DNA of 35,199 bases from an uncultured virus (IMG/VR IMGVR_UViG_2061766007_000148) (IMGVR_UViG_2061766007_000148), one strand, 5' to 3'. Positions 3,974-25,974 are shown, numbered from the stretch's first letter. The notes: generated by a model not told the origin, from the letters alone. A program made the numbers and translations.

Positions 3974-4005
3974 GTATGCCTCTCTTATGATTTTTGTTGT
4001 GTAGT

Positions 4006-4066
4006 AGAACTGCAATATGTTCTTAGACAATTATCTCGTAGACTTGCATGAACATATTGCAGTTCT
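4006..4066. repeat. Perfect 17-bp inverted repeat with 27-bp spacer
   Basis: AGAACTGCAATATGTTC (4006-4022) / GAACATATTGCAGTTCT (4050-4066). Confidence 0.9.
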
Positions 4067-6408: not shown

Positions 6409-7416
6409 ATGAGCACCTTTAAAAATTTACATGTCGCGTTCAAAAACAAAGATGATGAATATTATACTCTGTATGAAGATATAGAGAAAGAACTCTCTCA
6501 TTATTTTGAGTTCTTTAAAAATAAAACCATATATTGTAATTGTGACAATCCTCATATCTCTAATTTTCCAAGGTATTTCATACGATTTTTTCATAAAATG
6601 GGAATATCACGGTTAATCACCACTGGGTATAATCGATTATCAAATGGGTATGTACTCGATGTCAAAGTAAACGATATCCCCCCAGATGCCGCAACAATGT
6701 CTAATGCGGATTTGAATGACTTTATCGATGCCAGAACACAGTCTCTCTCAGGGAATGGTGATTTTGCGTCATATGAATGTATGTCCTATTTGAAAGAGTC
6801 GGATATTGTAGTGACAAATCCACCTTTTTCAAAATTCAGAGAGTTTTTTGAGTTGATTGTTTCAGTAAATAAAGATTTGATTGTGTTAGCCCCTTTTCTG
6901 GCATTAAGTTATAATGTTGTGTTGCCGTATGTTTCAACAGGGCGTATTAAAGTAAGTGATTTCTCAAAGACCAATTCTTTATCTTTTTTTAGCCCCCATA
7001 TCGAATCGCATATGAAATCCTTCAGAAAGGTTAGATGGTTAACTACTTTGAATATTAACTCAAAAGATCAATTAATTCTGTGCAAATACGATTCTGGGAA
7101 ATATTCCGTATATGATGAGTCTCCAAATATAATTAACATCAACCGTCTTAATGAGATACCCGATTATGATGGTATAATGGGGGTACCTGTGACTTATTTG
7201 GAACATCACAATCCAAGACTGTTTGAGATTGTGGCATACACTCAAAAACATTATCACATAAATAAAAAACAAACATTTGTGCGGGTATTAATACGTCGTC
7301 GGCAAAATAGTGAGAGTGGGGATACTAAATCTCAAAAAAGTGCTATGGATTGGGAGGATTATCAGGTAAATGATTTGAACACGGATGTGCAGACAAATCT
7401 CTCAAATTGGATGTAA
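6409..7416 (+). CDS. Adenine-specific DNA methyltransferase, EcoRI family
   Basis: DEYYT, IYCNCDNP, GNGDF, VVTNPPFS and DYDGIMGVP motifs. Confidence 0.93.
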   Translation: MSTFKNLHVAFKNKDDEYYTLYEDIEKELSHYFEFFKNKTIYCNCDNPHISNFPRYFIRFFHKMGISRLITTGYNRLSNGYVLDVKVNDIPPDAATMSNADLNDFIDARTQSLSGNGDFASYECMSYLKESDIVVTNPPFSKFREFFELIVSVNKDLIVLAPFLALSYNVVLPYVSTGRIKVSDFSKTNSLSFFSPHIESHMKSFRKVRWLTTLNINSKDQLILCKYDSGKYSVYDESPNIININRLNEIPDYDGIMGVPVTYLEHHNPRLFEIVAYTQKHYHINKKQTFVRVLIRRRQNSESGDTKSQKSAMDWEDYQVNDLNTDVQTNLSNWM

Positions 7417-8836: not shown

Positions 8837-9607
8837 TCATTCAACAAATGCGTGCAGCGCGTTCTTTCCTTTTTCCGTAACCGAATATTCCGATCTCTTC
8901 TTACAACCCGATGCGGTGATATAACCTCCTTCCAGAAGGGGATTAAGATACTTTCGCTGAACGGCATTGTGTATTCCCGGTGTCGGCGGGTTCTCGGCGG
9001 GAATGTCAAAACCAAGATGAATAAGAGATTCTATCAGAACGGTTTTTGTAACTCCGATGCCCATGTTTTCAAGATCGGCGATTGATTTCAGCGCGCGCAA
9101 AATCTCATCCTGCGGTTTTTCGATGCGGAAATCGAGTGAGAGTGTCTTAATATCAAATCCGACCTGCCTCCTGATTTTTCCCGTATAAAGGCGGGGTTTT
9201 GATTTCAGATAATACGGAATTATTTTTGTATTGTCTTTATCATCTTGGAAGAGCATTGCCGCGATAAGTCCTGCCGATGTCCAGATGTGTGATTTCGAAG
9301 GGCAATTAATAAAAATATAATTGCCGCGTTCGGACTCGATAATTTTCCGCAGGACTCCGATTGCATAATACAAATCGTCCTCGAATACTCCGCGGATTAA
9401 TTTGATATCTACATTTCTTGTCTCCGTTATCCGTGATTTAATCTTCTCGATATTCAGCGGTATCGGGTTGATACGGGTTGTAATCAGATACACTGTATCG
9501 GCTTCCATTTCATCGGGGAAATTCCATACTTTATCGGTATTAATATCCGTCGCAAATACAGGTATTATGTGAGTGCGGCGTGAATATTTTACTGAGCAGT
9601 TTGTCAT
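8837..9607 (-). CDS. CARF-like (DUF6293/HFX_2341-type) + wHTH protein
   Basis: ADTVYLI, IFIN...AGLIAAM, IIPYY; C-terminal KYLNPLLEGGYI...YSVTEKGK wHTH. Confidence 0.8.
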   Translation of the reverse strand: MTNCSVKYSRRTHIIPVFATDINTDKVWNFPDEMEADTVYLITTRINPIPLNIEKIKSRITETRNVDIKLIRGVFEDDLYYAIGVLRKIIESERGNYIFINCPSKSHIWTSAGLIAAMLFQDDKDNTKIIPYYLKSKPRLYTGKIRRQVGFDIKTLSLDFRIEKPQDEILRALKSIADLENMGIGVTKTVLIESLIHLGFDIPAENPPTPGIHNAVQRKYLNPLLEGGYITASGCKKRSEYSVTEKGKNALHAFVE

Positions 9608-10138
9608 TTAATCCGCCTCCCCGGATATTATGTTAAATATTTTGTTAAAATCCGATAATTTCAGTTCATGTATCTCAAAATCCTTTTTGAGTGTGTCTTT
9701 GTGTCTGAAGGTTGTTACGTAGTATGGGACAATTTCATTAATCCCGTCCCGATACAACACGGATGCCGCAACACCGGCAATTCTCCAACTCTGATATCCT
9801 GTGGATAAATTTACATAGATTGTATCCGTTCGGTGATTGCAAAATATCTTGAGATATTCATTCAATATCGGTTTCATATCGTCAATGTAAGGAGTTACGC
9901 AGACGTTTATTTTCGTTCTTTTTTTGCTGTGCTCGCGTATGTGTGAAGATATGTTGATTGCCGGGGTTGACGGGTAATCTTTGTCGGTCAGGATATACAC
10001 GATATCCGCATCCATACGTACCGGGGGGATGCCTGCTCTTAAAGTATCATCATATGACATCATATCGTTAACGGATAAGATATGAACTTTTTTGGTCTTT
10101 TGAGATGTCTTTTTTGAGTTAAGATTTTTTTCTGTCAT
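9608..10138 (-). CDS. Stand-alone CARF-like (DUF6293) domain protein
   Basis: KVHI, ADIVYIL, IYVNLSTG...AGVAAS, PYYV; no wHTH. Confidence 0.75.
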   Translation of the reverse strand: MTEKNLNSKKTSQKTKKVHILSVNDMMSYDDTLRAGIPPVRMDADIVYILTDKDYPSTPAINISSHIREHSKKRTKINVCVTPYIDDMKPILNEYLKIFCNHRTDTIYVNLSTGYQSWRIAGVAASVLYRDGINEIVPYYVTTFRHKDTLKKDFEIHELKLSDFNKIFNIISGEAD

Positions 10139-10418: not shown

Positions 10419-11273
10419 TCACCTGTCTGACCCGTCATCCCCGGCATTCAACAGGGCGTCAGCCTCGTCAATCAGATTGCCGTAATAATTACATCCCCCG
10501 AATTCCGACCAATATGTTACGAGTTCTTCAAGCGAGTCTCCGTGTTTTGCGGCATTCAGGACTTCACACGGAATCCTGAACTCTATTTTGTCGCTCTTAG
10601 TGTCCTCATCCGTGATACGTGCATTTTTCGGGATGTTTTCGGGGGTCAGCTTTGCAAGCGCGGTATCTCCCATGTCGTATATGTATAGAAGATTCTTGAT
10701 TGCATCATCCGCAGTTGTTCCGGCAAATTTGCCGCGATATATCGAAAAGCGCATGTTCGGGTATTTGTTCGCAAATTTCTCCGTGAGTTTGTCAAATTCT
10801 TCTCTCAGCGCCGAATCGTCCGGGTTATCTGCATACAGGCTGAAATAATTGTAATATGAATGGAATTTTTTAAATTTGTTCCGTACGTTGAGTTCATTCA
10901 CAATTTCATGGACTTGCCGACTGTAATTAATATATTCATTCCCGTCTGACTCATCCCATTTTGTATTCCCGACAGATTCTTCAAGCGTAAAGTTGTGCAA
11001 CATCGCCGAATATATGTATGCCGGGTCTAAGTAGAAGAGATACATGTCACGCTCTCCCGTAGTATAGTCTTTATCAAATGATTCACTTTCATCGTAATCG
11101 GACGGGTCTAATGAGATGGACATGTATTTCCTTGCGGCATCTTTCAGGGCATCGCGGAATGTGAAACCCAATCCGGCAAATGAACTGCCGTAATACCAAT
11201 CTCCCCCCGTGTTCACGACGGCGCATATGTCGGAATCTTCGGGGATAAGGTATTGGTATTCTTCGTAAGACAT
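10419..11273 (-). CDS. Acidic hypothetical protein with HicB-like motifs
   Basis: GLGFTFRDALKDA and AGTTADDAIKNL; start coupled (TAATG) to the upstream stop. Confidence 0.75.
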   Translation of the reverse strand: MSYEEYQYLIPEDSDICAVVNTGGDWYYGSSFAGLGFTFRDALKDAARKYMSISLDPSDYDESESFDKDYTTGERDMYLFYLDPAYIYSAMLHNFTLEESVGNTKWDESDGNEYINYSRQVHEIVNELNVRNKFKKFHSYYNYFSLYADNPDDSALREEFDKLTEKFANKYPNMRFSIYRGKFAGTTADDAIKNLLYIYDMGDTALAKLTPENIPKNARITDEDTKSDKIEFRIPCEVLNAAKHGDSLEELVTYWSEFGGCNYYGNLIDEADALLNAGDDGSDR

Positions 11274-11980
11274 TAGCAATCCCCCTTGGATTCGGTTGCG
11301 GCAGAGTAATCTTTTGTATATTCTCTCCAGATGTCCGTGATTTTGTTCCAATCCGTATAGTATTTGCCCTCTAAATCGGTATATGCGTCCAAAAGTTTCA
11401 TGTAGAGCTCTTCGGGGATTTTGACGATTATCAGTTCATCTTTTATCTTTTCAACATCCTCAAATTTAGGATTATAAAGGATTTTGTAATCCGAGATGTT
11501 TGTTGAAAAGTTTGGGCGCCCTCCTTCCCACTCGCGCTCGTAGAAATCGCTCATGGTTCTGTGGAAGACCTCTTTTGCCGTTTCACCGAAATAGTGTATG
11601 TATGTGTTGTAGACCGTTATGTATGTGCGCGGTCGGTATTCATACATAATTTCATCGCGAATGTTGATTCTGTATTCATTGTCGGTAAGCTCAGAATTTA
11701 TAAACTGTAATTCCTGATTGATTTTGCACATATGTTTGAGAAGTGCGGCTTTGTCAATCTGCGGAAATGAGGATGAATTGTATTTCATAACGTCGGTGAG
11801 AAGGTTTTTCAGGTTTTCTCCGAAGTCCTCAAGCTCATTATTTATCTCGCGGTTCAGTCTGCGGATACCGTCGTTTAAAGCGTTGTCATCCGTATCTTCA
11901 CTAAATATGAATTCCCGGACGAGTATCTTATCCGCCGAAATTTCACAGCGGTGCGTGTAGTCTTTGTCTGCAAAGTTCAT
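11273..11980 (-). CDS. Acidic hypothetical protein, paralog of 17529..18284
   Basis: NELED...LKNLL, IVKIPEELY and IWREY shared. Confidence 0.8.
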   Translation of the reverse strand: MNFADKDYTHRCEISADKILVREFIFSEDTDDNALNDGIRRLNREINNELEDFGENLKNLLTDVMKYNSSSFPQIDKAALLKHMCKINQELQFINSELTDNEYRINIRDEIMYEYRPRTYITVYNTYIHYFGETAKEVFHRTMSDFYEREWEGGRPNFSTNISDYKILYNPKFEDVEKIKDELIIVKIPEELYMKLLDAYTDLEGKYYTDWNKITDIWREYTKDYSAATESKGDC

Positions 11981-12014
11981 TTTGTTTCACCTGTTGTATC
12001 CATATTTCCTTATT

Positions 12015-12224
12015 TTATCCCCTTATCCCAAGACTAAACCATAATGCGAATGTTGCCGTGACAATCACTCCAGCAACCAAGGCTTCACAAAACAATATGC
12101 CGGACTTCACACCTGACGGGAATAAGTAATCCAATCCGTAAGTTATGAGCATTGTTGGGATTCCGACGAATATAAAAAAGAATCCCATTTCAAATATCCC
12201 GAATACATCCTCGGCATCACCCAT
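12015..12224 (-). CDS. Small two-TM membrane protein
   Basis: Two hydrophobic segments; GGAGGTGA RBS before 12224. Confidence 0.7.
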   Translation of the reverse strand: MGDAEDVFGIFEMGFFFIFVGIPTMLITYGLDYLFPSGVKSGILFCEALVAGVIVTATFALWFSLGIRG

Positions 12225-12225
12225 T

Positions 12226-12432
12226 TCAGTCACCTCCAATCGGGGGAAGAGACCCTAATGTGAGGACTCCCGATAGTAATGCGGCGGTAATCACGGCTGC
12301 GGATAACGGGATCTCCGGTTCGTGCGGGAAGAATAAATTTGACCCATATACTACGAGACTCATCCCGATTCCCGTAACTATGAGATATAATACATATATT
12401 CCAATAATTGATTTCAGGTCAGTGAAATTCAT
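12226..12432 (-). CDS. Small two-TM membrane protein, probable paralog of 12015
   Basis: GI.M.L..YG...LF(F)P pattern shared. Confidence 0.7.
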   Translation of the reverse strand: MNFTDLKSIIGIYVLYLIVTGIGMSLVVYGSNLFFPHEPEIPLSAAVITAALLSGVLTLGSLPPIGGD

Positions 12433-12471
12433 GATATCATCTCTTTGGTTTGCAATCTGTCTGACTGTCTG

Positions 12472-12642
12472 TCAGTCATTCCTCTCAGTTGGATTTGTGT
12501 CCTCCACAATATCCAAGGTGTTCTCCAATTCGTAAGATATCTCACATATCAAAATATCTTGGAATACGGTAGGTACCTCATAGAGAGCAAGTATTTGCTC
12601 TTCTATGATTCGGCAAATTGTGTCAAATTCCGATCTTTTCAT
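12472..12642 (-). CDS. 56-aa acidic protein (MKRSEFDTICRIIEEQ...)
   Basis: ATGA overlap with the upstream stop, GGAGG RBS, fills an operon gap; not in the ORF track. Confidence 0.6.
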   Translation of the reverse strand: MKRSEFDTICRIIEEQILALYEVPTVFQDILICEISYELENTLDIVEDTNPTERND

Positions 12643-13115
12643 AGTGCATCCTCCGCGTGCATTCTTTCTTCTTCGTCTTCTTCTTCGTAATCAATAATTT
12701 TTTCAAGGAAAATTTTGTAGCTGTAATTCAGATCAGACATCTCGATTGCGGAGTATCCGTAATATGATGAGTTGCTGAGCCATTCGTAAAAGTCGTCGTC
12801 GATTTTGAGGAAATAATATCCGGTCGTGTTGTCGAGAACCGACATGTCATCGTATGTGTCAAGCATTCCGCATTCAAAATCCGGGGCATCGTACAGCCAT
12901 TGTACATCCAAAAATGTGTCGTTTTTTATCATGTAGTCATATGCCTCTTTGCGTGTGTCGCCCTGCCCCAAGACCACATATCCGATTGGATTTTCTCCAT
13001 CATCCAACCGATAGGGTTTTTCGAGACGTTCACGCGATACTATGCCGACATCACTTTCCGTATAGATTACATGCGGCGTATTGACCTTATCATATCCGTA
13101 GACTAAGATGTACAT
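12639..13115 (-). CDS. Acidic hypothetical protein
   Basis: GQGDTRKEA HicB-like motif; D/E-rich. Confidence 0.75.
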   Translation of the reverse strand: MYILVYGYDKVNTPHVIYTESDVGIVSRERLEKPYRLDDGENPIGYVVLGQGDTRKEAYDYMIKNDTFLDVQWLYDAPDFECGMLDTYDDMSVLDNTTGYYFLKIDDDFYEWLSNSSYYGYSAIEMSDLNYSYKIFLEKIIDYEEEDEEERMHAEDAL

Positions 13116-13116
13116 T

Positions 13117-13362
13117 TTAATTCTCCCTGATGTGTATGTCTATAACCTCATCCATGTGTGCGTTAAAGAACACTTTGACTCCGTTAACCTCGTCTTTGGT
13201 GATTTCTTTGGTTAAATATGACTGTCGGAGTTCTTTGTTAATTTCTTCGGACAGTTGAGAAATGTCCCAAAAAAGATAATATCCGTGATTGTCGTTGTCA
13301 CGGATATCTTCAAAACCATCCTCAATCTTTTTGATTATTTTTTGAGTTTCTTCGGCTGTCAT
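13117..13362 (-). CDS. Small acidic protein, paralog of 13363
   Basis: LFWDI, ELRQSY and FFNxHM shared. Confidence 0.8.
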   Translation of the reverse strand: MTAEETQKIIKKIEDGFEDIRDNDNHGYYLFWDISQLSEEINKELRQSYLTKEITKDEVNGVKVFFNAHMDEVIDIHIREN

Positions 13363-13611
13363 TTAATTTCCCTCCTTCAGGTGTATATTCGCAACCTTTT
13401 CCATGTGCGTATTAAAGAACTCCTTGAGACCGTCAAATTCGGCTCTGGTGAGTCTGTTTGCCGTGTATGATTGGCGGAGTTCTGAGAAGATTAAATCCGC
13501 GATAATGTGGATGTCCCAGAACAGCGCACTGCCGTTGTTGCCGTTGTCGGTAACCGCATCGAATTCATCCGATATTCTTTCAGTAAGTCTGTTTACTTCT
13601 TCTTCGGTCAT
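13363..13611 (-). CDS. Small acidic protein, paralog of 13117
   Basis: Same shared motifs; GGAGG RBS. Confidence 0.8.
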   Translation of the reverse strand: MTEEEVNRLTERISDEFDAVTDNGNNGSALFWDIHIIADLIFSELRQSYTANRLTRAEFDGLKEFFNTHMEKVANIHLKEGN

Positions 13612-13613
13612 TT

Positions 13614-13907
13614 TTATGCCTCCGGGTTCCCTTTGTGGGATGACAGTTTGTATTTTTTGCAGTCATATATGCGGTATTCAACGTCGTTGCCGCTTAACAG
13701 CGATAAGCGCATAACCTCATAGTGTGCGATTACATAATGATGGTTCAGACGGTCAAGACCGTCTGCGGGAAATGCGAACCTGTTAAACCAGATATCGCGG
13801 AATGCGTAGTCTTTGTCAAGATTGGAAATGTCTTTGCTGTTTATGTCAATGTATTGTTCGTGCAGTTTTTCGATAAGTTTCTGAGCTTTGATTTCATCGG
13901 ATACCAT
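13614..13907 (-). CDS. Hypothetical protein
   Basis: AGGAGG RBS, operon position. Confidence 0.7.
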   Translation of the reverse strand: MVSDEIKAQKLIEKLHEQYIDINSKDISNLDKDYAFRDIWFNRFAFPADGLDRLNHHYVIAHYEVMRLSLLSGNDVEYRIYDCKKYKLSSHKGNPEA

Positions 13908-13934
13908 TTTACTGCCCTCCTGAAAAATGAGGAT

Positions 13935-14483
13935 TTATTCCTCATCTCCGAAAACATTCTCAACACGCCAATAATCGTCGGTCTCGCTCTTGGCGTGCAT
14001 TCCGTCATACGTGTAATACAGATAATTCCCTTTTTTGTCACCAGCATAAACAAATTCGGAAACATTTTGGTATTCGTCGATATCCGCGCAAGGGATGAAA
14101 TCCCATATGCGCTCAGGGTCTTCAGACCATCCGCAGATACATGCCTGTATTGATAACGGCTCAAATCTGGAGGACGAATGGCGCGCGTATTCGTCGAAGT
14201 CATTTTGAATGTCTTCGGGAACGATTGTGTATGTTCCGTCATCCTCATCGATAAGATCCTGAATATGTGATACGGCACCGTCACGGATTACCTCGAAGTT
14301 CGCGATGGCTGCTTTCAAATCCGTGATGTCCTCACAATCCCATTCCGCAACACGATCTAACAGAATTTGTCTCATTACGCAAAGGCTGTTGATTATATCA
14401 TAGTAATCTTCACGCGGGTTATTTTTGTTGAGCTCTATAAATGAATTCAGGTATTCGTTAATATAGTAGATTTTCTTGGTCAT
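13935..14483 (-). CDS. Acidic hypothetical protein
   Basis: AGGAG RBS; 182 aa. Confidence 0.75.
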   Translation of the reverse strand: MTKKIYYINEYLNSFIELNKNNPREDYYDIINSLCVMRQILLDRVAEWDCEDITDLKAAIANFEVIRDGAVSHIQDLIDEDDGTYTIVPEDIQNDFDEYARHSSSRFEPLSIQACICGWSEDPERIWDFIPCADIDEYQNVSEFVYAGDKKGNYLYYTYDGMHAKSETDDYWRVENVFGDEE

Positions 14484-14511
14484 TTTTTACATCTCCTGAA
14501 AAATTAGGGAG

Positions 14512-14724
14512 TTATCCTTCGATAACTCCGTAGAGGTCATCCGCATAGTACTCACAGACAAAAGGATTGAATATCGCCGTGCATTTCTTGCCATTGTATT
14601 CGACGATGTAATACGGCTGTCTGGGGTTGTCAATCCTCTCGATTATTGTGATTTTGTCCATCTTTCCTTCCAATGAGTTTATGTGGGCTGTTGTTTCTAT
14701 ATTCAGTTTTGTCATGGTTTCCAT
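14512..14724 (-). CDS. Small phage-type hypothetical protein (start may be 14715)
   Basis: YNGKKCTAIFNPF...YYADD; AGGAG RBS. Confidence 0.75.
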   Translation of the reverse strand: METMTKLNIETTAHINSLEGKMDKITIIERIDNPRQPYYIVEYNGKKCTAIFNPFVCEYYADDLYGVIEG

Positions 14725-14748
14725 CTCCTAAAATTTTGTATTTTTTGT

Positions 14749-15030
14749 TCAGTCTCTTATTGCGGAAACCAAACAAATCAGCAAATAGTTGTTATAGTAT
14801 ATCGAGTCCTGAACATTGAGGAATTCACTGGACGTGAAATCCGGTTCCAATCCGTCAGAGTAGTCCTTACTCAATGCACTACTTAAAGTACTGAATTTCT
14901 CAAAATATTCTCTGATAAATTTGTATTTTTCCGCATCGGTCATCTGTCCGGGGAGTTTTGCAATAAATTCGGCTCTCAGCGAGTCTATTTCATCCACATA
15001 GTGTTTTGCGGTCTTGCTCATTTCTGTCAT
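14749..15030 (-). CDS. Hypothetical protein, first gene of a leftward operon
   Basis: AGGAG RBS before ATG 15030. Confidence 0.7.
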   Translation of the reverse strand: MTEMSKTAKHYVDEIDSLRAEFIAKLPGQMTDAEKYKFIREYFEKFSTLSSALSKDYSDGLEPDFTSSEFLNVQDSIYYNNYLLICLVSAIRD

Positions 15031-15057
15031 CTTTGTAACTCCTGTGCATTTGCACAA
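15028..15057 (-). promoter_or_regulatory. Leader with TGTGC-n-GCACA palindrome + RBS (copy 1)
   Basis: Near-identical to 18282-18308. Confidence 0.65.
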
Positions 15058-15243
15058 TAGATTATACTCACTAATATTATTTAATATTATTTAATTTTGA
15101 ATAGAGTTGTATGGCAGTATGTGGGTTATGTCGCATACGTAGGGCAAGTCAGGTTCGGATATAATGTAAATTTGTGTGCGATTTTGGAAAACAGAATGTG
15201 GTTTGTAAAAAAATAGTGAGATTATTAAAAAATAATTAAAGTT

Positions 15244-15600
15244 TTAATTCTCATTCTGTCCGGGATTGCGCATGAAATACCCGTTGCAGAGTCGGGTATA
15301 TCCGTATGCCGTCCTGTTCAGGTGGTTGTCAAGGGTAATGAGCTGATTAATCGAGATCGTGTTGCGGTTGCGCGCCGCGGTCAGTCGGTCGGAGAGTGCG
15401 CAGATATCTTGAGCAATGCGGCAAAGCTCCTCGCGTGAGACAACCCCATCCGATTTTGAGGTATTGTCACATGTTGAGATGTCGTAACTGACGCGGTTGA
15501 TGCCGCGCACAAGGTTCACATACGATAAGTCGTCCGAAAGGATGTTGTCCCCGGATAATTGCGGGTGCGGTTCTATGTCGGAATCTAATTGAGTGTTCAT
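15244..15600 (-). CDS. Hypothetical protein
   Basis: 118-aa ORF, no clear RBS. Confidence 0.55.
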   Translation of the reverse strand: MNTQLDSDIEPHPQLSGDNILSDDLSYVNLVRGINRVSYDISTCDNTSKSDGVVSREELCRIAQDICALSDRLTAARNRNTISINQLITLDNHLNRTAYGYTRLCNGYFMRNPGQNEN

Positions 15601-15753
15601 TTACGGTTGATGTGTCGTATTTGCGGATAAATATTGCTGTTGGGGATTTCGGCAAATAATTTAAAAAGGATGAATGCATACATATATATGATCAATACAA
15701 ATGTATCATCCGTCGGGACATGGGAAATCCCGATGTTGTATTGAGTAATTCCT

Positions 15754-15952
15754 GTGCTCCCCATGTTCATGGGGATGAACCGGCATTGGGAGTTTGAAAA
15801 GAGTTTACAGACGAGATTACAAATCTGCTCAATTCAGCTTCACGGATAATGTTTCCGGTTACAACGTTCCCCATGTTCATGGGGATGAACCTGCATTCAG
15901 ATTGTGAACTGTCGCGGTTCAATGATGTTCCCCATTTTATGGGGATTCACTC
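15754..15952 (+). CRISPR. Mini CRISPR array, type I-E-like repeats (3 repeats, 2 spacers), no cas genes in window
   Basis: GTGCTCCCCATGTTCATGGGGATGAACCG (15754-15782), ACGTTCCCCATGTTCATGGGGATGAACCT (15864-15892), degenerate ATGTTCCCCATTTTATGGGGATTCACTC (15925-15952); spacers of 81 and 32 bp. Confidence 0.85.
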
Positions 15953-15974
15953 ATTTTAACAGGATTAAATGATA

Positions 15975-16313
15975 TCAGCGGGGTGGGGTAATCGAAACTC
16001 CGTCGGGGATTTCGGAAATTGCCCTAAATTTTTCAAGTCCTTCGGTTAACTCCTCTACTTCATCATCAAGTTTATACCACGTATAGTCCTTTTCATACTG
16101 TTTCAGGCTGTAATCCAAATCATAGAGCACACCTGCCAAATCCCTCGAATACGGGCTGACATACCAATAATAATGATATCCTAATTTTATCCCGCACCTC
16201 TGCAACATATACACAATTGTTTGATAGTATATCTTGTCAGCTTTGGTTTCGTAGTTAAAGTCAATATCCAACTTTTTAAGGAGGAGATATATGATAATTG
16301 ATTCCGGTTTCAT
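15975..16313 (-). CDS. YwgA/DUF4065(Panacea)-like protein, possibly C-terminally truncated
   Basis: YQTIVYMLQ..GIKLGYHYYWYVSPYSRDLA resembles the QKLxY...GPYS signature. Confidence 0.6.
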   Translation of the reverse strand: MKPESIIIYLLLKKLDIDFNYETKADKIYYQTIVYMLQRCGIKLGYHYYWYVSPYSRDLAGVLYDLDYSLKQYEKDYTWYKLDDEVEELTEGLEKFRAISEIPDGVSITPPR

Positions 16314-16336
16314 GGATTGTTATCTCCTGTATTATG

Positions 16337-16957
16337 TCATTCTATCAGTATGCCGACCAATGGATCGGGATATTCCGCGGACTGGTGAGCGTCTACCCGA
16401 ATTTCATATTCTAAGGTTCTTCTGAACCTGTATTTTTTGCCGGATTCAAATGACATATACATATAATATTGAACGTTATCGGAGTATGAGAGATCCCCGT
16501 CATTTGCGATTCTGTAATCCGTGTATGAATCGGGGTTGTCGGGGAATTCGATTTCGGGGTGATTGGCTCTTGCCATCCGCAAGGCATCGCCGAATGTTTC
16601 ACCCCATCCGCAGACATCCCGGTTATACCTGAAAATCATTACATATGACCATTCGTGTGTTGCTTTCAGATGCTCTTTGTGTGTTTCGAGTTCTTTCAGG
16701 TATTGTGTTTTGGATATGTAATATACCCTAATGTCGGGTCTGCGCGCTTTAATAATCGCGTTCAGGGCGTCTTCCGGTGTGACTCCCGCTCTTTGTGCGA
16801 TACGATGTCCGCCCCATTCCAGAGTGCTTACATAGAATCCGCTGTACTGCGCATAATCATCTAAAACCATTACGGTTGAGTCATTCATCCAGTTTGTTAA
16901 TGCGTCCTTGGCATCGGGGTTTGGTGCGATGTAGTTATCATCTGTATTTTCGGTCAT
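16337..16957 (-). CDS. Hypothetical protein with two HicB-like motifs
   Basis: AGVTPEDALNAI and GWGETFGDALRMA. Confidence 0.75.
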   Translation of the reverse strand: MTENTDDNYIAPNPDAKDALTNWMNDSTVMVLDDYAQYSGFYVSTLEWGGHRIAQRAGVTPEDALNAIIKARRPDIRVYYISKTQYLKELETHKEHLKATHEWSYVMIFRYNRDVCGWGETFGDALRMARANHPEIEFPDNPDSYTDYRIANDGDLSYSDNVQYYMYMSFESGKKYRFRRTLEYEIRVDAHQSAEYPDPLVGILIE

Positions 16958-16993
16958 ATTCTGTCTCCTGTGATTTCTTTAGGTGTGTGTTGC

Positions 16994-17170
16994 TTAATCG
17001 GTTTCTTCGGGGAACATTTCTCTCATCTTTTCCTCACGTTCTACCGCGTTTTTTATGCCGTCGGATGCGGCTTTGCTTATGTTGATTCCGTATTCTCGCG
17101 CTTTCGTAAGTAATTCCGTTGATACATACGCGGTGATTATCTTTTTTTCTTCGGCGGATTTCTGTCTCAT
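16994..17170 (-). CDS. 58-aa RHH (CcdA-like) protein, paralog of 10139
   Basis: MRQKSAEEKKIITAYVSTELLTKAREYGINISKAASDGI...; ATGA overlap; not in the ORF track. Confidence 0.8.
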   Translation of the reverse strand: MRQKSAEEKKIITAYVSTELLTKAREYGINISKAASDGIKNAVEREEKMREMFPEETD

Positions 17171-17529
17171 AGGTCATTCTCTGAATCGTCGTTGTACAAC
17201 TCTTCGGATATGTGCGCGGTTTCGTTCATTTTTCTCAGCTCTGATATAATCCGGTTGAACTCATCTTCTGCCCCTTCATCTTTCGGATTAATATCCGTGA
17301 GTCTGTCCCATGCATGACGTAAGCAGATATCTATCTTATCATCCTCGGCGGTTCCGACACCTCTGATATACTGAACTCTTATTTCATGTCGGTAACGGTC
17401 TATAAGTGTTGCAAATTTGTCTAATTCATCCGAGATATTTTCAGTGTTATAGTCCGGGATACATAAGCAAAGGTTTTGGATAAAAATTTGGGTAGTCTGT
17501 GAGAAATTATCTCCTGAATTTTGTGTCAT
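17167..17529 (-). CDS. Acidic hypothetical protein
   Basis: Translationally coupled at both ends. Confidence 0.7.
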   Translation of the reverse strand: MTQNSGDNFSQTTQIFIQNLCLCIPDYNTENISDELDKFATLIDRYRHEIRVQYIRGVGTAEDDKIDICLRHAWDRLTDINPKDEGAEDEFNRIISELRKMNETAHISEELYNDDSENDL

Positions 17530-18284
17530 TATACCGTCTCCGTGAGGTTGTTCCTCTCATATTCTCTCCAGAGTTGATGGATGTTTACGCGGTTTGAGTT
17601 ATAACGATCCTCATAAAGTATGTCATATTTCAACCAATCCGTAATATATGCATTGTACACATCGTTAGGGATTTTTGCGACGATTAAACAGACTTCATTC
17701 TCAAATGATGAGTATTTTAAATCGGTATATATCGGAAATGTGAGTGTTTCTCCGTGGCGTTTTGCAACAATTTCCAAGTCCGAGACTTTGATTATCTTAC
17801 CATGGGGATCATATGTTTGGATATACTTTTCAACCAGTTCTTTCGGGTCATTCCCTCCCCTTAACGTCACGATGCCCGCTTTTGCGTCCGAGTCCGCGGG
17901 AACAGGTCTGAAAAATATATACCGTGCGGAATATATTTCAGAGATATCAGATACAAATTTATGATATCTCATATCGGGATGAAGGTAATGCGCTCCCAAT
18001 TCATGAGATCCTTCACGAACCGCGGCAAAAATCTCACATAGTGTCCAGATAAATCTGACACGTTCACGCACCGCGTTTTGTGAAGTATCTGTATGATTTT
18101 TTAGAAGGTTATCTAACTCATCCTCTAAATCAGATAATTCATGCTTTAATTCATGAATCGCACTCTGAAATTCTTCAATCAGTGTAACATTTTTATCATC
18201 ACAATTCGTCAGAGCATATGCAACGGCTTTTATCTGTGCTTCCTGCATCTGAGGTGATGGCAGATTTTCTGTAAGGTCTTTCAT
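17529..18284 (-). CDS. Hypothetical protein, paralog of 11273..11980
   Basis: HELSDLEDELDNLL, IVAKIPNDVY, LWREY. Confidence 0.8.
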   Translation of the reverse strand: MKDLTENLPSPQMQEAQIKAVAYALTNCDDKNVTLIEEFQSAIHELKHELSDLEDELDNLLKNHTDTSQNAVRERVRFIWTLCEIFAAVREGSHELGAHYLHPDMRYHKFVSDISEIYSARYIFFRPVPADSDAKAGIVTLRGGNDPKELVEKYIQTYDPHGKIIKVSDLEIVAKRHGETLTFPIYTDLKYSSFENEVCLIVAKIPNDVYNAYITDWLKYDILYEDRYNSNRVNIHQLWREYERNNLTETV

Positions 18285-18340
18285 TTTGTAACTCCTGTGC
18301 TTTGCACATATCCCTATATGATCGTCATATTATATAAAAT
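18282..18340 (-). promoter_or_regulatory. TATA box (TTTATATA) + palindromic leader (copy 2)
   Basis: TGTGCAAAGCACAGGAGTTACAAAATG on the minus strand. Confidence 0.65.
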
Positions 18341-18538
18341 TATATAATTTTGTATAACTTTGAGAACCTTACAGATCGGGGAAATGCGTTTTACTTAAAA
18401 AGGATAAGATAGAATATGTAATCGGTCAATAAATTTCTAATCATGACATGATCTCAGAACTGCTTATGAGATTTATTGATCCAAACATGTTAGTTCTCAT
18501 AAATATAGGCAGAGTAATTTTTGATTTTCATAGAAACA

Positions 18539-18581
18539 AAACCCCGAAGATATTTTCATTACCTTTGTATCTTCGGGGTTT
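18539..18581. terminator. 14-bp perfect stem-loop after the leftward basic-gene operon
   Basis: AAACCCCGAAGATA / TATCTTCGGGGTTT. Confidence 0.5.
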
Positions 18582-18614
18582 GTTGCTGACAGATAATATC
18601 ACTTTTAATGTATT

Positions 18615-18785
18615 TTAAAAAGAAGATTTTCTATTAGGTTTTGTTTTTCGGGTCGATTTTGATTTATGCCCGATTCTTTTTACCATTTTTGCATGTGCTT
18701 TGGCTCTTTTCAAATCTTTCTTAAATTCAGAACTCATTTCTATATAAGGAATTATGATTTTCCGCTTTCTCTTAGCAGGCATCAT
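18615..18785 (-). CDS. 56-aa very basic protein (MMPAKRKRK...KSTRKTKPNRKSSF)
   Basis: AGGAG RBS; abuts the upstream stop; not in the ORF track. Confidence 0.6.
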   Translation of the reverse strand: MMPAKRKRKIIIPYIEMSSEFKKDLKRAKAHAKMVKRIGHKSKSTRKTKPNRKSSF

Positions 18786-18908
18786 CTATCTCCTGAACTT
18801 TGTCTGAATCTGTGCGAGTGTGCTGAGCTTTGTATTCCTGAGCTTGGTCTTTGCCTTGAGAACGTCCGGGCTGTTTTCCGAGTTTGCATATTGAATGTAG
18901 CGTATCAT
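18786..18908 (-). CDS. 40-aa basic protein ending KFRR
   Basis: AGGAGG RBS; not in the ORF track. Confidence 0.6.
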   Translation of the reverse strand: MIRYIQYANSENSPDVLKAKTKLRNTKLSTLAQIQTKFRR

Positions 18909-18933
18909 GTTTTGTTCCTCCTATGGGTTTCAG

Positions 18934-19398
18934 TTATCTGCGGCGCTTTGCCGGGTAGGTGTGGATGGCTTTTTCTCTATCTGCAAGATAATCCAGATAT
19001 TTTTGTCTTTCCTGTTTATATGCGTAATTTGTATCCCACCTTTTTTCAATAATCCAATCATTGGCTTTAGGATTCTTATTATTCACATTCCTGAGAATAT
19101 AGGTATCAAGAATTCTGTTTCTTTCAATATTATCAGCTTCATGTTTTCTTGCATTATCTCGTGATTCTTTTAAGATTTTGTAAACTAATTTGCTTGGTAA
19201 CGTTTTTTTATCAACATTCCAACGAATAACTCCGTTAAAAAAAACAAATGCAAGTTCTTTGTAATCCCCATTCTCTCTTCGATTCATATCAGCATACATT
19301 ATTCCCGTGGGAAATACACCCATAAAAAGATCAATCGGTTTCTTGGATGCTTTCTTTGCGGATGTCTTTTTTGGTGTTGTTTTACGTGTTGTTGCCAT
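18934..19398 (-). CDS. Array protein, TLPSK family
   Basis: Start MATTRKTTPKK after GGGGG RBS; paralog of 19430 and 29616. Confidence 0.85.
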   Translation of the reverse strand: MATTRKTTPKKTSAKKASKKPIDLFMGVFPTGIMYADMNRRENGDYKELAFVFFNGVIRWNVDKKTLPSKLVYKILKESRDNARKHEADNIERNRILDTYILRNVNNKNPKANDWIIEKRWDTNYAYKQERQKYLDYLADREKAIHTYPAKRRR

Positions 19399-19429
19399 TT
19401 TTGTTTTCCCCCTGATAAGATATTGAGAT

Positions 19430-19906
19430 TTATTTCCTTTTGCGCATATTTGCGTATGAGTGAATTGCCTTTTCTCTTTTTGAAACGTAATCAAGATATC
19501 TTTGCCTATCTTTTTTATATTCGATATCTGCCCATGCCTGTTCATATTTTCTGCGGCTGTCCGCTTCTTCCGGTGTTAAGAATCCTTTATGTACATACCA
19601 ATCCATCTGAGATTTACGGGCATTATTTTCTGAAAGGTATCGTTCCTCCCTTTTTCTTACCATATCCCGTGATCTTTGTAATATTTTATATCTTATTTTA
19701 CTCGGTAAAGTATTTTCATCAACGTACCATAGAATATCCCCTTCGTTGTAAACCAATGCAAGTTTTTTGTAATCATTATGTTCTTCTCTGTTTTTGTCGC
19801 AATACATTATACCTGTCGGGAATACATATATGCCCAAGTCAATCGGTTTTTTGGATGCTTTCTTTGCGGATGTCTTTTTTGGTGTTGATTTACGTATTGT
19901 TGCCAT
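19430..19906 (-). CDS. Array protein, TLPSK family
   Basis: MATIRKSTPKKTSAKK...REKAIHSY. Confidence 0.85.
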   Translation of the reverse strand: MATIRKSTPKKTSAKKASKKPIDLGIYVFPTGIMYCDKNREEHNDYKKLALVYNEGDILWYVDENTLPSKIRYKILQRSRDMVRKREERYLSENNARKSQMDWYVHKGFLTPEEADSRRKYEQAWADIEYKKDRQRYLDYVSKREKAIHSYANMRKRK

Positions 19907-19952
19907 TTTCTTTTCTCCCTAAATTTTGTCAATATATTCTCAGTGTATAAAC

Positions 19953-20729
19953 CTATCCGAAGTAAGTTAAAATCCCGCGGATTCTCTTACGTTCTTTCCA
20001 ACCCCGCAAGTATTCAAGTGCATTTGAATCCATCGCTTTATTGAACATTTTCTCGTCAAGTTTAATCAGTTCAAAGTTGTTTCGTGTCAGTTGTCTTCTT
20101 CTCCTTTTTTTAATAGATTCACCAACCTTATAATAATCCCAATCCTCATTATAATTCTTTAATTCTTTATCCAATTCTTCCTGTGCTTCGCGTAATGTCG
20201 ATCCATATGCCCACCAAAACTCTGCTTTTTCTGCGGGTTTTTCTACATATGCGTATTTGAAGTTATATACAGGGCGTTCTTTGATATATCCGGGTTTGAT
20301 TGATGGCTCTTTTGGTTCGTATTTACTTATTCTCTCTATTTCAGTTAATATTTTTATATCATTATCTCTATTCGTTATACCTACTTTTTCAAATACCGAA
20401 TTGGGTATAAATTTCAATAATTTAATATAATCTGCCCTTGAACCCCCAATTCCTATATGTGGATAATTTTGGCGGAGATATAATGGGATAACTGTTTTTA
20501 AGCCATATTTCCCCGTAATATCCACTGCTTTATCTTTACTGGCATAATACACCGGTCTATAAAAGCTCAATCCATCCATTCCGATGGCAACAACTTTGTT
20601 CTTATACAGAATCATTGTCATTAAACCATTAGATGTACGAATTCCTTTAACGATTTCAAAATTTCCGTCTTTTATGACTCGATAATTGTTTTTATCATAT
20701 ATGTTGTTGGTTTTACGTGTAGTTGTCAT
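19953..20729 (-). CDS. Array protein, KDG family + HicB-like C-terminal motif
   Basis: VIKDGNFEIVKGI, LYKNKV, TGKYGLKTV; AYGSTLREA. Confidence 0.85.
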   Translation of the reverse strand: MTTTRKTNNIYDKNNYRVIKDGNFEIVKGIRTSNGLMTMILYKNKVVAIGMDGLSFYRPVYYASKDKAVDITGKYGLKTVIPLYLRQNYPHIGIGGSRADYIKLLKFIPNSVFEKVGITNRDNDIKILTEIERISKYEPKEPSIKPGYIKERPVYNFKYAYVEKPAEKAEFWWAYGSTLREAQEELDKELKNYNEDWDYYKVGESIKKRRRRQLTRNNFELIKLDEKMFNKAMDSNALEYLRGWKERKRIRGILTYFG

Positions 20730-20758
20730 TTTGTTTCCTCCTTAATATTTTCAAAGCC

Positions 20759-21250
20759 TTATTTTTTCAATCTCAGGTTTATTTTTTTGTAATTCTTTGA
20801 GTAGTTATTCCAATCATCTCCATATTTGTGTATGAAGGCATGATTACTTCTCATAATGCGTGATTGAGCAAGATCTCGTGGAATCAACCGTTCAAAAATA
20901 GATTCGGGTATCACATCAATAATCTCCGGGAGACATTTTGCAAAATGAAATTGCGGATATATTTTTCGGCTGTTTATAACCGATATCACAGTCTTAGGAC
21001 TGAATCTGTTTACGGCATATTCTCCAGATGCCCCATTCCGTGGTATGTATATCAATGTTCTAAAGTCATTTGCCCAAAAAATACACAGGACTTTATTCTT
21101 ATATGTGATTATGTCCATTTTATTTGGGTAATCTGGCTGACTTTTAAAAGGAACATTTTCCATTAATCCAAAATCTCCGTCTTTAAAAATTGGATAGTTG
21201 TATATACTGTTGCTGTTCTGTTTTGATGTTGATTTACGTGTTGTTGCCAT
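20759..21250 (-). CDS. Array protein, KDG family
   Basis: YPIFKDG, TYKNKV, RFSPKTV. Confidence 0.85.
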   Translation of the reverse strand: MATTRKSTSKQNSNSIYNYPIFKDGDFGLMENVPFKSQPDYPNKMDIITYKNKVLCIFWANDFRTLIYIPRNGASGEYAVNRFSPKTVISVINSRKIYPQFHFAKCLPEIIDVIPESIFERLIPRDLAQSRIMRSNHAFIHKYGDDWNNYSKNYKKINLRLKK

Positions 21251-23844: not shown

Positions 23845-24840
23845 ATGGCATCAAGAATAAAGGAAATTAGAAAAGAAAAGAGAAAACGTCGCAGAGAATT
23901 ATTCATCCGCAATCTTGTTGCGGATATTAAAGGTCTGCCGACAACACTTGATTTTAAGATAAGTAATGCAAAAACTGCCGTCAACAGATACCGGGTTAAA
24001 CGGCGTGTTGCTCAGATAGAGCGTAATCGTGCAAAACGAGAGGCTGAAGAACGGGCAAGAGCTTATGCACCTGATGATGTTGACGATTACGACGATGACT
24101 ATGAAGAAGATTTCGATGACGATTATGAAGAATATTCTCCGAAATCACGGGTAAGGTCATCCGGCAAGAGGACTCGCCCGGCATCGTCACGCAGCGGGTC
24201 GGGTGCCGTCGTTGCGAAGAAAGCGGCGGCGGTAATGGGTCAGTTCTTGAAGAATGCCGCGGCTAACATGGTCTCGGACGGCGAGTCAACAAAGTCCGTA
24301 AGATTCTGGGATGAGGGCAGACCTCCTTGGGAGACTCACCCCGAAGCCTACCAACCGAAAAGACAGACTCCGAGGAGGAGTCCGCCGAAATCGAGAGGTT
24401 TTGACTTCGGCGATGTCGGGTTTGGGGGTTTTGACAGTATGTCGATGCCGTCTTCAAAGCCGAAACGCAAATCCGTGAAATCATCTGCGTATTCGGACAT
24501 GTCGCGGTTGCCGTGGGATTCCCCGTCAGGTCGGGGTTCATCCCGGTCGCCCGCACCGCGGGAGGACTTCGGCGGCATGAGACGGTCGGGGTCGTCGATG
24601 CGTAAGAGCACGGATGATTTCATCAACGGATATCAGCTCAGCATTTCGCGTGACGGCACGGTTGGTTCAGCTTACAAGGGCGGCAGACACTACATTCCGT
24701 ATCACAAGGTGAAACGCGGTGAAAAAATCTATTGGATGCCGTGTATCAATCGCTATGAGCCTGCCGAAATCAGACCGTTGATTGCCCGCAAGGTCTTCAA
24801 GTGGGTATCCGAAGAACAGCATATGAACAGAGGGTATTAA
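23845..24840 (+). CDS. Array protein: basic/acidic/RS-rich low-complexity regions + YTPE-type domain
   Basis: MGQFLKNAAANMVSDG block shared with 25420; C-terminal INGY...RYEPAEI. Confidence 0.85.
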   Translation: MASRIKEIRKEKRKRRRELFIRNLVADIKGLPTTLDFKISNAKTAVNRYRVKRRVAQIERNRAKREAEERARAYAPDDVDDYDDDYEEDFDDDYEEYSPKSRVRSSGKRTRPASSRSGSGAVVAKKAAAVMGQFLKNAAANMVSDGESTKSVRFWDEGRPPWETHPEAYQPKRQTPRRSPPKSRGFDFGDVGFGGFDSMSMPSSKPKRKSVKSSAYSDMSRLPWDSPSGRGSSRSPAPREDFGGMRRSGSSMRKSTDDFINGYQLSISRDGTVGSAYKGGRHYIPYHKVKRGEKIYWMPCINRYEPAEIRPLIARKVFKWVSEEQHMNRGY

Positions 24841-24879
24841 CCCAAAATCAATTTATTTCAAAAATAGGGGGAAAAGAAA

Positions 24880-25398
24880 ATGGCAAAAAAGTATGAGTAT
24901 ATCACAACACAGTATAGAGAACCTAAGAAACAGGTACGCGCAAAACATGATCCTTTTATGACACACTCTGTCGGGAATCATATATATTATGCAAATATTG
25001 CCTCAAAAAAACCAATTCAGTGGTCATTTGGAACAATGTATTTTAAACATGGGGCACCAGCCGGGGATTTGGTAATACGCCCACGGGAAGAACGTCTTGC
25101 CATAGAGAGAGGTGCTATAAGTTCTGGTGAAAAGAGTTATGAAATTAAGCGTAAAAGCCAACCCCGTGCATACCATGTAAAAGGCATACCGGAATATGTT
25201 TCTTTGAGACAATATGTAGCACCTTATGATTATGCTACAAATATTCAGGAAAGAATCAAACTCAGTAAAAAAGAACCTCGTGTGATAATCTCCCCTGAAG
25301 AACTGGAATATAATCCGGTAGAGGCTATTAGATATAATCTTGCGAAAATTGCACGGCACAAGCGTGTTACCAGAGGTAAAAAGTCATTCAGGTCATAA
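24880..25398 (+). CDS. Array protein, RHKRVT family
   Basis: YYANIASKKP; ARHKRVTRGKKSFRS. Confidence 0.85.
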   Translation: MAKKYEYITTQYREPKKQVRAKHDPFMTHSVGNHIYYANIASKKPIQWSFGTMYFKHGAPAGDLVIRPREERLAIERGAISSGEKSYEIKRKSQPRAYHVKGIPEYVSLRQYVAPYDYATNIQERIKLSKKEPRVIISPEELEYNPVEAIRYNLAKIARHKRVTRGKKSFRS

Positions 25399-25419
25399 TT
25401 TCAAATAAGGGGGAAAATC

Positions 25420-25974
25420 ATGGTATCAACATCAACAAAAAAGAAGGTTGCGTCGGGTGCAAAGAAAGTCGGCGCATTTATGGGGCAGTTTTTGAAAAAT
25501 GCCGCGGCAAACATGGTCTCGGATGGCGGGACAACAAGGTCTGTGGGATTCTGGGATGAGGGCAGACCTCCTTGGGAGTTATATCCCGACCCCTATGAAT
25601 CCAAGCGGAAATCCGGTTCGGGCGGTTCAGGTGGTTCGAGAGGTTCAGGTTCATCGCGGTCGAAGAAATCTTCATCCTCGTCACGCGGCGGTTCGGGTTC
25701 AACGTCCCGCAAGAGTTCACGGGGCGGTTCCCGTGAAAGTTCACGCGGCGATGTCATTAACGGCTACGTCCTCGACCTTGCTGCGGACGGCACCGTAAAA
25801 TCAGCTTACAAGAATGGCAGAACCTACATTCCGTATGCTCTTTTCAGCTACACGGACGGCGATTATTGGGAGTCCTGTATCAGGGAATACACGCCCGATG
25901 AAATCCGGGAGTTCATCCGGCAAAAGGCGTTTAGATGGGTCGATGAAGAAAAGCACAACGGAAGGAGGGGATAA
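25420..25974 (+). CDS. Array protein: SRG-rich linker + YTPE domain
   Basis: Paralog of 23845. Confidence 0.85.
   Translation: MVSTSTKKKVASGAKKVGAFMGQFLKNAAANMVSDGGTTRSVGFWDEGRPPWELYPDPYESKRKSGSGGSGGSRGSGSSRSKKSSSSSRGGSGSTSRKSSRGGSRESSRGDVINGYVLDLAADGTVKSAYKNGRTYIPYALFSYTDGDYWESCIREYTPDEIREFIRQKAFRWVDEEKHNGRRG

Follow-up and report, generated by a model that had tools for sequence, protein, structure and literature searches.

Why would a mobile element carry a CRISPR array and none of the proteins that use one? The question is raised by a 35,199-nucleotide stretch of DNA from an uncultured virus (IMG/VR IMGVR_UViG_2061766007_000148), referred to below as the window. A sequence-only reading had described positions 15754–15952 as a cas-less mini-CRISPR with type I-E-like repeats in an archaeal mobile element, and had offered two roles for it: targeting of competing elements through the host's Cascade, or an RNA anti-CRISPR. 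The evidence now leans to a regulatory crRNA-like guide, a role related to both of these options.

Read along the + strand, the array consists of a repeat (R1), an 81-nt spacer-like segment (S1), a second repeat (R2), a 32-nt spacer (S2) and a degenerate terminal repeat (R3). R1 (15754–15782, GTGCTCCCCATGTTCATGGGGATGAACCG) matches the host type I-E repeat described below except at positions 2 and 4 (2/29), with its hairpin, Cas6e-type cleavage context and 5′ handle, ATGAACCG, all intact. S1 (15783–15863) has a non-canonical length. R2 (15864–15892, ACGTTCCCCATGTTCATGGGGATGAACCT) starts with ACGTTCCCC, ends with GAACCT and departs from the host repeat at positions 1, 2 and 29 (3/29), while S2 (15893–15924) has the canonical length of 32 nt. 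In the alignment, R3 (15925–15952) keeps the 6-bp stem, has a loop shortened by 1 nt and is decayed in its 3′ part. The stem, CCCCAT/ATGGGG, is present in every repeat; the loop is GTTC in R1 and R2 and TTT in R3, and 24 nt are identical between R1 (15758–15781) and R2 (15868–15891). A repeat search of the window placed the repeat starts 110 nt (R1–R2) and 61 nt (R2–R3) apart, so that the canonical 29+32 period applies to the second unit alone. Sequence and alignment thus confirm what had been proposed of the array itself, that is, two 29-bp repeats with this stem, a degenerate third one and a canonical second unit; on the 81-nt first unit, the earlier reading had made no remark.

The repeats stand out clearly from the background. 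The core pattern matches the window five times against 0.47 expected, a count reached in none of 100 shuffles, and the host repeat aligned to the window scores 52 at R2, 50 at R1 and 32 at R3, whereas none of 20 shuffles scores above 26. A by-eye comparison revealed no hidden repeat inside S1, with about 8 of 29 identities, the chance level. Rfam returned no match at gathering score over the whole window, and its CRISPR-DR54 family only a sub-threshold match at R3 on the wrong strand (16.3 bits against 39). The fold z-score of −5.5 for the whole array was rejected as a sign of special structure, because it reflects only the pairing of R1 with R2. An 18-nt segment at 507–524 (+), TTCATTGGGATGAACCGC, inside a C5-methylase ORF, where it encodes HWDEPR, is similar to the 3′ half of the repeat. 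It has no hairpin partner and was dismissed as a repeat copy, being most likely a coincidence.

The array occupies a 374-bp gap between two minus-strand ORFs, 15244–15600 (118 aa) and 15975–16313 (112 aa), neither of which belongs to a known family in Pfam or PHROGs, and it lies on the strand opposite to both. The AT-rich, leader-like stretch in front of it (15601–15753, +) contains two TATA-like runs, AATAATTTAAAAAGG at about 15656–15670 and ACATATATATGA at about 15679–15690. Lying 60–95 nt upstream of R1, these runs would be the promoter of the array, and a second promoter, for the minus-strand gene starting at 15600, may lie in the same stretch. No clear homology was found between this leader and the 36-nt leader of the host array. 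The motif TCGGGGATTTCGG, with up to 2 mismatches, occurs eight times in the window (1.05 expected; 0 of 100 shuffles reach eight), at 15640–15652, 16003–16015, 16530–16551 and five more sites, with four of the copies clustering less than 1 kb from the array. A possible operator, the motif bears a loose resemblance to the repeat segment GGGGAT...CGG.

That the window lacks cas genes, as had been noted before, was borne out by Pfam and PHROGs: no cas family is found among the 59 ORFs tested, a non-overlapping set picked from longer ORF lists of the 35-kb window, which makes the array an orphan, cas-less one. The genes that can be recognized include methylases and a phage-type radical SAM protein among mostly orphan ORFs; no tRNA gene was found in the window and no capsid gene was recognized in it. 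Archaeal markers found with Pfam are an A24 prepilin peptidase and proteins with HFX_2341_N and DUF6293_C domains, and one further protein has a relative in Pyrococcus abyssi virus 1 (PAV1; 23.5% identity, 93% coverage, E 1e-12). Sequencing runs that contain positions 11000–20999 come from bovine, sheep and goat gut, from manure and from one viral metagenome (20 rows from 12 studies, the best holder of which may be the source of the window itself). These archaeal markers and ruminant-gut runs identify the carrier as an archaeal mobile element of ruminant guts, as the earlier attribution to an archaeal element had it; it is probably a virus, and its host probably a ruminant-gut Methanomicrobium. 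Relatives of the element are almost absent from the collections searched, IMG/VR and the JGI metagenomes among them: none could be confirmed in IMG/VR for the two flanking ORFs, and none was found for ORF 16337–16957 in 39 genomes of the host's family.

Two other features of the element may be recorded here. The archaeal A24 prepilin-peptidase-like gene (3097–4030, −) is spread over two overlapping frames, 3296–4030 and 3097–3486, which may reflect a frameshift, a pseudogene or an assembly error. A GC-rich island at 23845–25974 (+), with a GC content of 0.47–0.50 against about 0.34–0.37 around it, contains a 331-aa ORF whose product is highly charged, rich in Ser and Arg and probably disordered; it has no family match and no usable Protein Atlas match.

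Type I-E systems are uncommon in archaea. When TCCCCATNNNNATGGGGATRAAC was searched for in prokaryote genomes, one for each species, 47 loci were obtained, only one of which has the GTTC loop. This locus, L012, is on a contig of the MAG Methanomicrobium sp. RGIG1551, where three copies of GAGTTCCCCATGTTCATGGGGATGAACCG lie at the end of the contig, 36 nt downstream of cas2. The contig (L012/L075) encodes, in operon order, the C-terminal part of Cas3, Cse1, Cse2, Cas7e, Cas5e, Cas6e, Cas1 and a type I-E Cas2. The MAG repeat is matched by R1 at 27 and by R2 at 26 of 29 positions. Among 401 Methanomicrobiales genomes, the 25-nt repeat core occurs within 2 mismatches in 10 and exactly only in the RGIG1551 MAG, and in the JGI metagenomes the exact core is confined to a single contig, L070, which is the trailer end of a host-type array. 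In L070, the 29th base of the repeat can be A, C, G or T, indicating that the actual unit is a 28-nt repeat with a 33-nt spacer and that the final T of R2 is ordinary variation. The hairpin, loop and handle of both host arrays are identical to those of the window, and the 28+1-nt repeat and 61-nt unit are shared as well. The window copies deviate from them at positions 1–2, R1 also at position 4. A full cas operon lies next to the host array in L012/L075; no such genes were found among the 59 ORFs tested in the window. On these identities, the array is made of type I-E repeats that match a candidate host system, although the RGIG1551 MAG may not be the true host strain. The repeats had been called type I-E-like and potentially diagnostic of the host; both ideas hold, the hairpin and 5′ handle being found exactly in one Methanomicrobium MAG, beside I-E cas genes.

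The same comparison disposes of the simplest alternative, namely that the repeats are palindromic protein-binding operators that look like CRISPR by chance, which the sequence-only reading had tied to the lack of any host array with this repeat and of any processed RNA. A palindromic core in an intergenic gap between two genes would suit such operators. A host array with the repeat does exist, and the identity to it extends over 26–27 of 29 nt, through the non-palindromic ATGAACC tail, in an array whose second unit has a 61-nt period. Identity through the tail excludes chance palindromes, and we leave this explanation a very small probability.

Little else links the window to the candidate host. 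In IMG/VR, the repeat pattern has one match, a chance one in GC-rich coding DNA. Compared with the window by blastn-short, the host spacers (L012, L019, L023, L070 and other Methanomicrobiales loci) give only chance matches of 13–19 nt, and a direct scan of the window with one of the two spacers of L012 reached 21/32 at best. Window DNA in the host MAG amounts to the repeats and one 35-nt match of 89% identity, between G001:C87:47-80, at the end of a MAG contig, and window positions 16944–16978, which hold the ribosome-binding site and first codons of ORF 16337–16957. This match was rejected as a spacer; a related element may have left it behind in the host MAG. The first letters of the penultimate spacer of L070 (minus strand, about 880–950), GCATCTGGGG, have a faint likeness to those of S1, GCATTGGGAG; it extends over about 9 nt and is probably due to chance.

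Are these repeats still fit to make crRNA? In the type I-E systems of E. coli and Thermus, the Cas6e cut falls directly behind the final G of the hairpin, so that a crRNA begins with 8 nt of repeat, the 5′ handle, and ends with 21 nt, the 3′ hairpin. Stem, loop and 8-nt handle are all preserved in R1 and R2. In R3 the stem alone survives; the last crRNA requires no more than this, and the part of R3 that has decayed would have been the 5′ handle of a further crRNA, which the array does not have. Judged by this comparison, the parts required for crRNA are kept and those not required have decayed. The orientation of the repeats makes the + strand the sense strand; the array would be transcribed on this strand, and the host Cas6e, by analogy, would cut after each hairpin. 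The products expected of such processing would start with AUGAACCN: one of about 110 nt, made of AUGAACCG, S1 and a hairpin, and one of about 60 nt, made of AUGAACCU, S2 and a hairpin. They would then be loaded into the host Cascade.

Near-perfect host repeats in an element that has no cas genes, together with spacers for which no target was found, could also be explained by an RNA anti-CRISPR of the Racr type, in which repeat mimics soak up Cas6e and Cascade subunits into useless complexes irrespective of the spacers. R1 and the non-canonical 81 nt that follow could even act as a solitary repeat unit. However, the array has three repeats, spaced 110 and 61 nt apart, rather than a solitary one, and the 5′ parts of its spacers are conserved and alike, which a spacer-independent decoy does not predict. 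We therefore regard a decoy of this kind as improbable.

The likeness of the two spacers is indeed confined to their beginnings: S1 and S2 agree at 12 of their first 16 nt and at 2 of the next 16. The probability of at least 12 agreements in 16 is 3.8e-5 at p=0.25 and 2.7e-4 at p=0.3. Type I Cascades leave positions 6 and 12 of the spacer unpaired, and two of the four early mismatches between S1 and S2 fall on these very positions.

A comparison of four runs, X3, X14 (labelled as a viral metagenome), X18 and X20 (a metatranscriptome), extends this picture to relatives of the element. Contigs of three further studies (X3, X14 and X18) carry the array, and it is covered without gaps by one contig of X3 (15254–15994) and one of X14 (15334–15994). 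A second lineage, found in X14 and X18 and the commoner one in X14, matches the window at 15750–15799/15802, diverges, and rejoins it at 15879–15994, where it is about 89% alike (over 116 nt, 13 letters differ and 3 gaps occur); upstream of 15750, too, its DNA is a different one. The pattern implies that R1 and 17–20 nt of S1 (15783–15802) have been kept as a module while the rest of S1 was replaced. Conservation is thus limited to the seed-proximal part of the spacer both between S1 and S2 and in the second lineage. Within the array, the SNPs listed are 15804, 15812 and 15841 in S1, 15892 at repeat position 29, and 15915 and 15921 in S2; among those listed, none affects the body of a repeat or nucleotides 1–20 of a spacer, with chance probabilities of 0.035 and 0.11. 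As weak evidence, this placement favours a seed-proximal constraint. In X20, no contig spans 15508–15927; all of the runs consist of contigs, which have no bearing on transcription or processing. Contigs of other runs skip or replace 14678–15077, 14715–14890, 14909–15008 and 15435/15458–15750, and the region near the array appears to be a recombination hot spot among relatives of the element.

These observations bear on the possibility that the array is an inert relic, a piece of a host array that was gained by recombination and is now decaying. The degenerate R3, the odd length of S1 and a leader that has no clear homology to that of the host are what a relic would look like. On the other hand, R1 and R2 have stayed identical over 24 nt while the adjacent 5′ parts of the spacers differ at 4 of 16 positions, the array persists in two lineages in spite of many differences elsewhere, and in the second lineage R1 and the 17–20 nt after it persist although the flanks on both sides have been replaced. 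A relic consequently appears quite improbable to us, slightly more so than a repeat decoy.

If the array works as CRISPR arrays usually do, its spacers should match some competitor. In agreement with the earlier scan of the window, no self-target was found there (best match 21/32), and a partial match of S2 at 28712 (16/20) was judged to be due to chance, its mismatches falling in seed positions 1–2. In IMG/VR, S2 searched with every sixth base left free gave no match, and the 20-nt seeds gave 2 and 5 matches, none of which extends; a full protospacer for S1 or S2 was found neither in the window nor in IMG/VR. A conventional virus-borne mini-array, the crRNAs of which direct the host I-E Cas proteins to cleave competing related elements and so bring about superinfection exclusion, is nevertheless a serious rival. 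Its repeats match those of the host and appear fit for processing, S2 and its 61-nt unit are canonical, and the array persists in diverged lineages. One contig of X3 shows a repeat, a 32-nt spacer and a repeat, which, if it comes from the element, suggests ordinary spacer turnover. For the 27 extra letters of the joint in X3, there is no match in the window. In the survey of viral mini-arrays by Shmakov et al., most spacers are reported to target other viruses (PMC10120712). Moreover, with relatives of the element nearly absent from the collections searched, the missing protospacer weighs little. Against this role stand the 81-nt length of S1, the likeness of the spacers in their 5′ 16 nt only, and the second lineage, which retains just the first 17–20 nt of S1. 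We consider the targeting of rivals rather doubtful, yet a possibility of some substance. Taken together, the 81-nt S1, the shared 5′ parts of the spacers, the R1 module, the placement of the SNPs and the lack of a protospacer point away from plain spacer memory.

What points instead to regulation of the host's own system is a short match in its cas3 gene. Positions 1–14 of S2, positions 6 and 12 excepted, match L075 at 6682–6695, inside cas3 and preceded by AAG, which amounts to 12 specified bases. A guide made from S2 would pair there with the non-template strand. The seed pattern, GCATTNAGATTNTG, has one exact match in the whole 1.6-Mb MAG, and this is the cas3 site. The chance expectation is about 2e-3 for 12 bases in about 20 kb of cas-locus DNA, two strands and two spacers, with the AAG left uncounted. 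None of 300 shuffled versions of S2 reached the same run on L075 (maximum 12), by a run statistic that was chosen after the cas3 match had been seen. AAG is the PAM of the E. coli type I-E system; with any of the four bases possible at the 29th position in L070, it may not be that of the host system. The site is intragenic, about 470 nt before the cas3 stop codon, while the prediction made beforehand was a promoter target. Neither the promoter region of cas3 nor the 87-nt gap between cas3 and cse1 contains a match to the S1 or S2 seed. Of the places where the sequence-only reading had suggested looking for S2, viruses, in IMG/VR, gave no full match, the cas3 promoter region of the host gave no seed match, and the cas genes gave this 14-nt seed match with its AAG.

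Could the match simply record where S2 came from? In the reading frame of cas3, S2 would include a stop codon, from which it follows that it was not acquired from a cas3 allele. Homologues of Cas3 are found in 82 of the 401 Methanomicrobiales genomes, the best at 53% identity, and in 29 other aligned loci the homologous cas3 site has no match to S1 or S2. A search of all 401 genomes with the degenerate seed was rejected as too permissive: it matched in 163 genomes, and all 39 sites examined (30 judged from sequence context and 9 by tblastn) were unrelated to cas3, which indicates that such short matches are common elsewhere. The S1 seed has no exact match in the MAG and four with one mismatch; two of these sites were examined and lie in ordinary ORFs, without a plausible PAM. 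No CreR-like mini-array of the host with the S2 seed was found.

A second part of the element also has a counterpart in the host I-E locus. The window encodes a Csa3/HFX_2341-like regulator (8837–9607, −), with an HFX_2341_N and a winged-helix domain, and next to it a shorter paralogue of 176 aa (9608–10138, −) that has HFX_2341_N only and lacks the winged helix. In the candidate host, the 5′ half of cas3 is on another contig, L116, and a 264-aa protein with HFX_2341_N and winged-helix domains and weak similarity to Csa3_N is encoded directly upstream of it, in divergent orientation (569–1363, −). The 8837–9607 protein is 36% identical to this host regulator over its full length (E 1e-36), and had no match in a PDB sequence search. 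Among 14 other I-E upstream regions, the coordinates of which are estimates, such a regulator is found beside cas3 in one, G067, which has the closest Cas3 relative. HFX_2341 of Haloferax mediterranei is described as resembling Csa3a and, when over-expressed, as repressing all cas genes tested (PMC11434293). By similarity, then, two components of the host I-E locus, the repeats and the regulator, have relatives in the element, whose Csa3/HFX_2341-like proteins may act on cas expression as part of the same counter-defence theme.

In sum, we give about an even chance to the proposal that the array is a crRNA-like regulatory or anti-CRISPR array, analogous to the Cracr arrays of bacterial phages. 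If it is, only the 5′ handle and the first 14–20 nt of each spacer would matter, and repression would take place at the candidate site inside cas3. Two of the points against such a regulatory array are that S2 has the canonical 32 nt of an ordinarily acquired spacer and that cas3 is matched at one site only, of 14 nt, in a single MAG. A fuller scheme, in which the element turns copied parts of the host's own type I-E system against it in two ways, with crRNA-like guides that park Cascade in the cas3 ORF as a roadblock, maybe on two alleles, and with viral copies of the Csa3/HFX_2341-like proteins that rewire cas transcription, is more speculative and, on balance, unlikely.

The array may switch off the CRISPR defence of the host rather than fight rival viruses. 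RNA guides with which mobile elements silence host CRISPR would, if the regulatory proposal is true, also occur in archaea and also act inside genes. The proposal makes testable predictions, namely Cas6e products, binding of Cascade at a defined site in cas3 and a role for the co-encoded Csa3-like proteins. Irrespective of its function, the locus is a clean case in an element of a ruminant-gut methanogen, with a named candidate type I-E host system, and it provides a virus–host link for Methanomicrobium; in the literature on Methanomicrobium viruses, CRISPR and the rumen, we found no description of such a virus.

Cas-less viral mini-arrays and crRNA-like anti-CRISPR RNAs of phages are already known, and the published regulatory cases target bacterial systems. 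In the Sulfolobales, the viruses SPV1 and SPV2 reportedly carry mini-arrays that serve in conflicts between viruses (as Medvedeva et al. are said to have described in 2019) with no cas genes, repeats identical to those of the host and one or two spacers that fully match sibling viruses. The array studied here is likewise a cas-less one on an archaeal element, and differs in its non-canonical first unit and in that no protospacer was found. It has two features of a virus-borne mini-array, a location on a cas-less mobile element and repeats that match those of a host. The mini-arrays of two to three repeats described by Shmakov et al. in 2023 have conserved seeds and diverged distal parts, with the sixth position often mismatched, and one prophage mini-array has two largely identical spacers (PMC10120712). 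Matches of such arrays are reported to be enriched in cas loci, and there in intergenic regions (PMC10120712). The seed and distal parts of S1 and S2 follow the same pattern, whereas the match of the window lies in coding DNA, and the worked examples in that survey are bacterial phages and prophages. Racrs, described by Camara-Wilpert et al. in 2023 as solitary repeat mimics on viral genomes without cas genes (PMC10651486), resemble the array in being cas-less repeat mimics; unlike them, it has three repeats at array spacing and conserved 5′ parts of the spacers.

The closest parallels are found among the Cracrs of Liu et al., who list 219 phage candidates with predicted targets all in bacterial CRISPR-Cas loci, in a preprint whose main text does not use the word 'archaea' (10.1101/2024.10.29.618823). 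As reported there, 30 are arrays, 20 of them of type I-E with 2–3 spacers, and the spacer-like parts have atypical lengths of 21–24 nt, only PAM-proximal complementarity being needed (10.1101/2024.10.29.618823). Co-encoded guides are described as aimed at variants of one CRISPR type, and the third repeat of a Salmonella prophage Cracr array has a 1-nt deletion that shrinks its loop (10.1101/2024.10.29.618823). According to the same source, Cracrs were found by their similarity to host CreR or CreA, and those tested target promoters (10.1101/2024.10.29.618823). The array studied here differs from them in that it belongs to an archaeal element and is known from sequence alone, that no host CreR was found for it, that its only candidate site is inside the cas3 ORF and that S1 is 81 nt long, as against 21–24 nt. 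It shares with them cas-less repeats of the host type on a mobile element, a small number of spacer-like units and, in R3, the 1-nt deletion in the loop, and its anatomy, as read from the sequence, fits the class of Cracrs and viral mini-arrays well.
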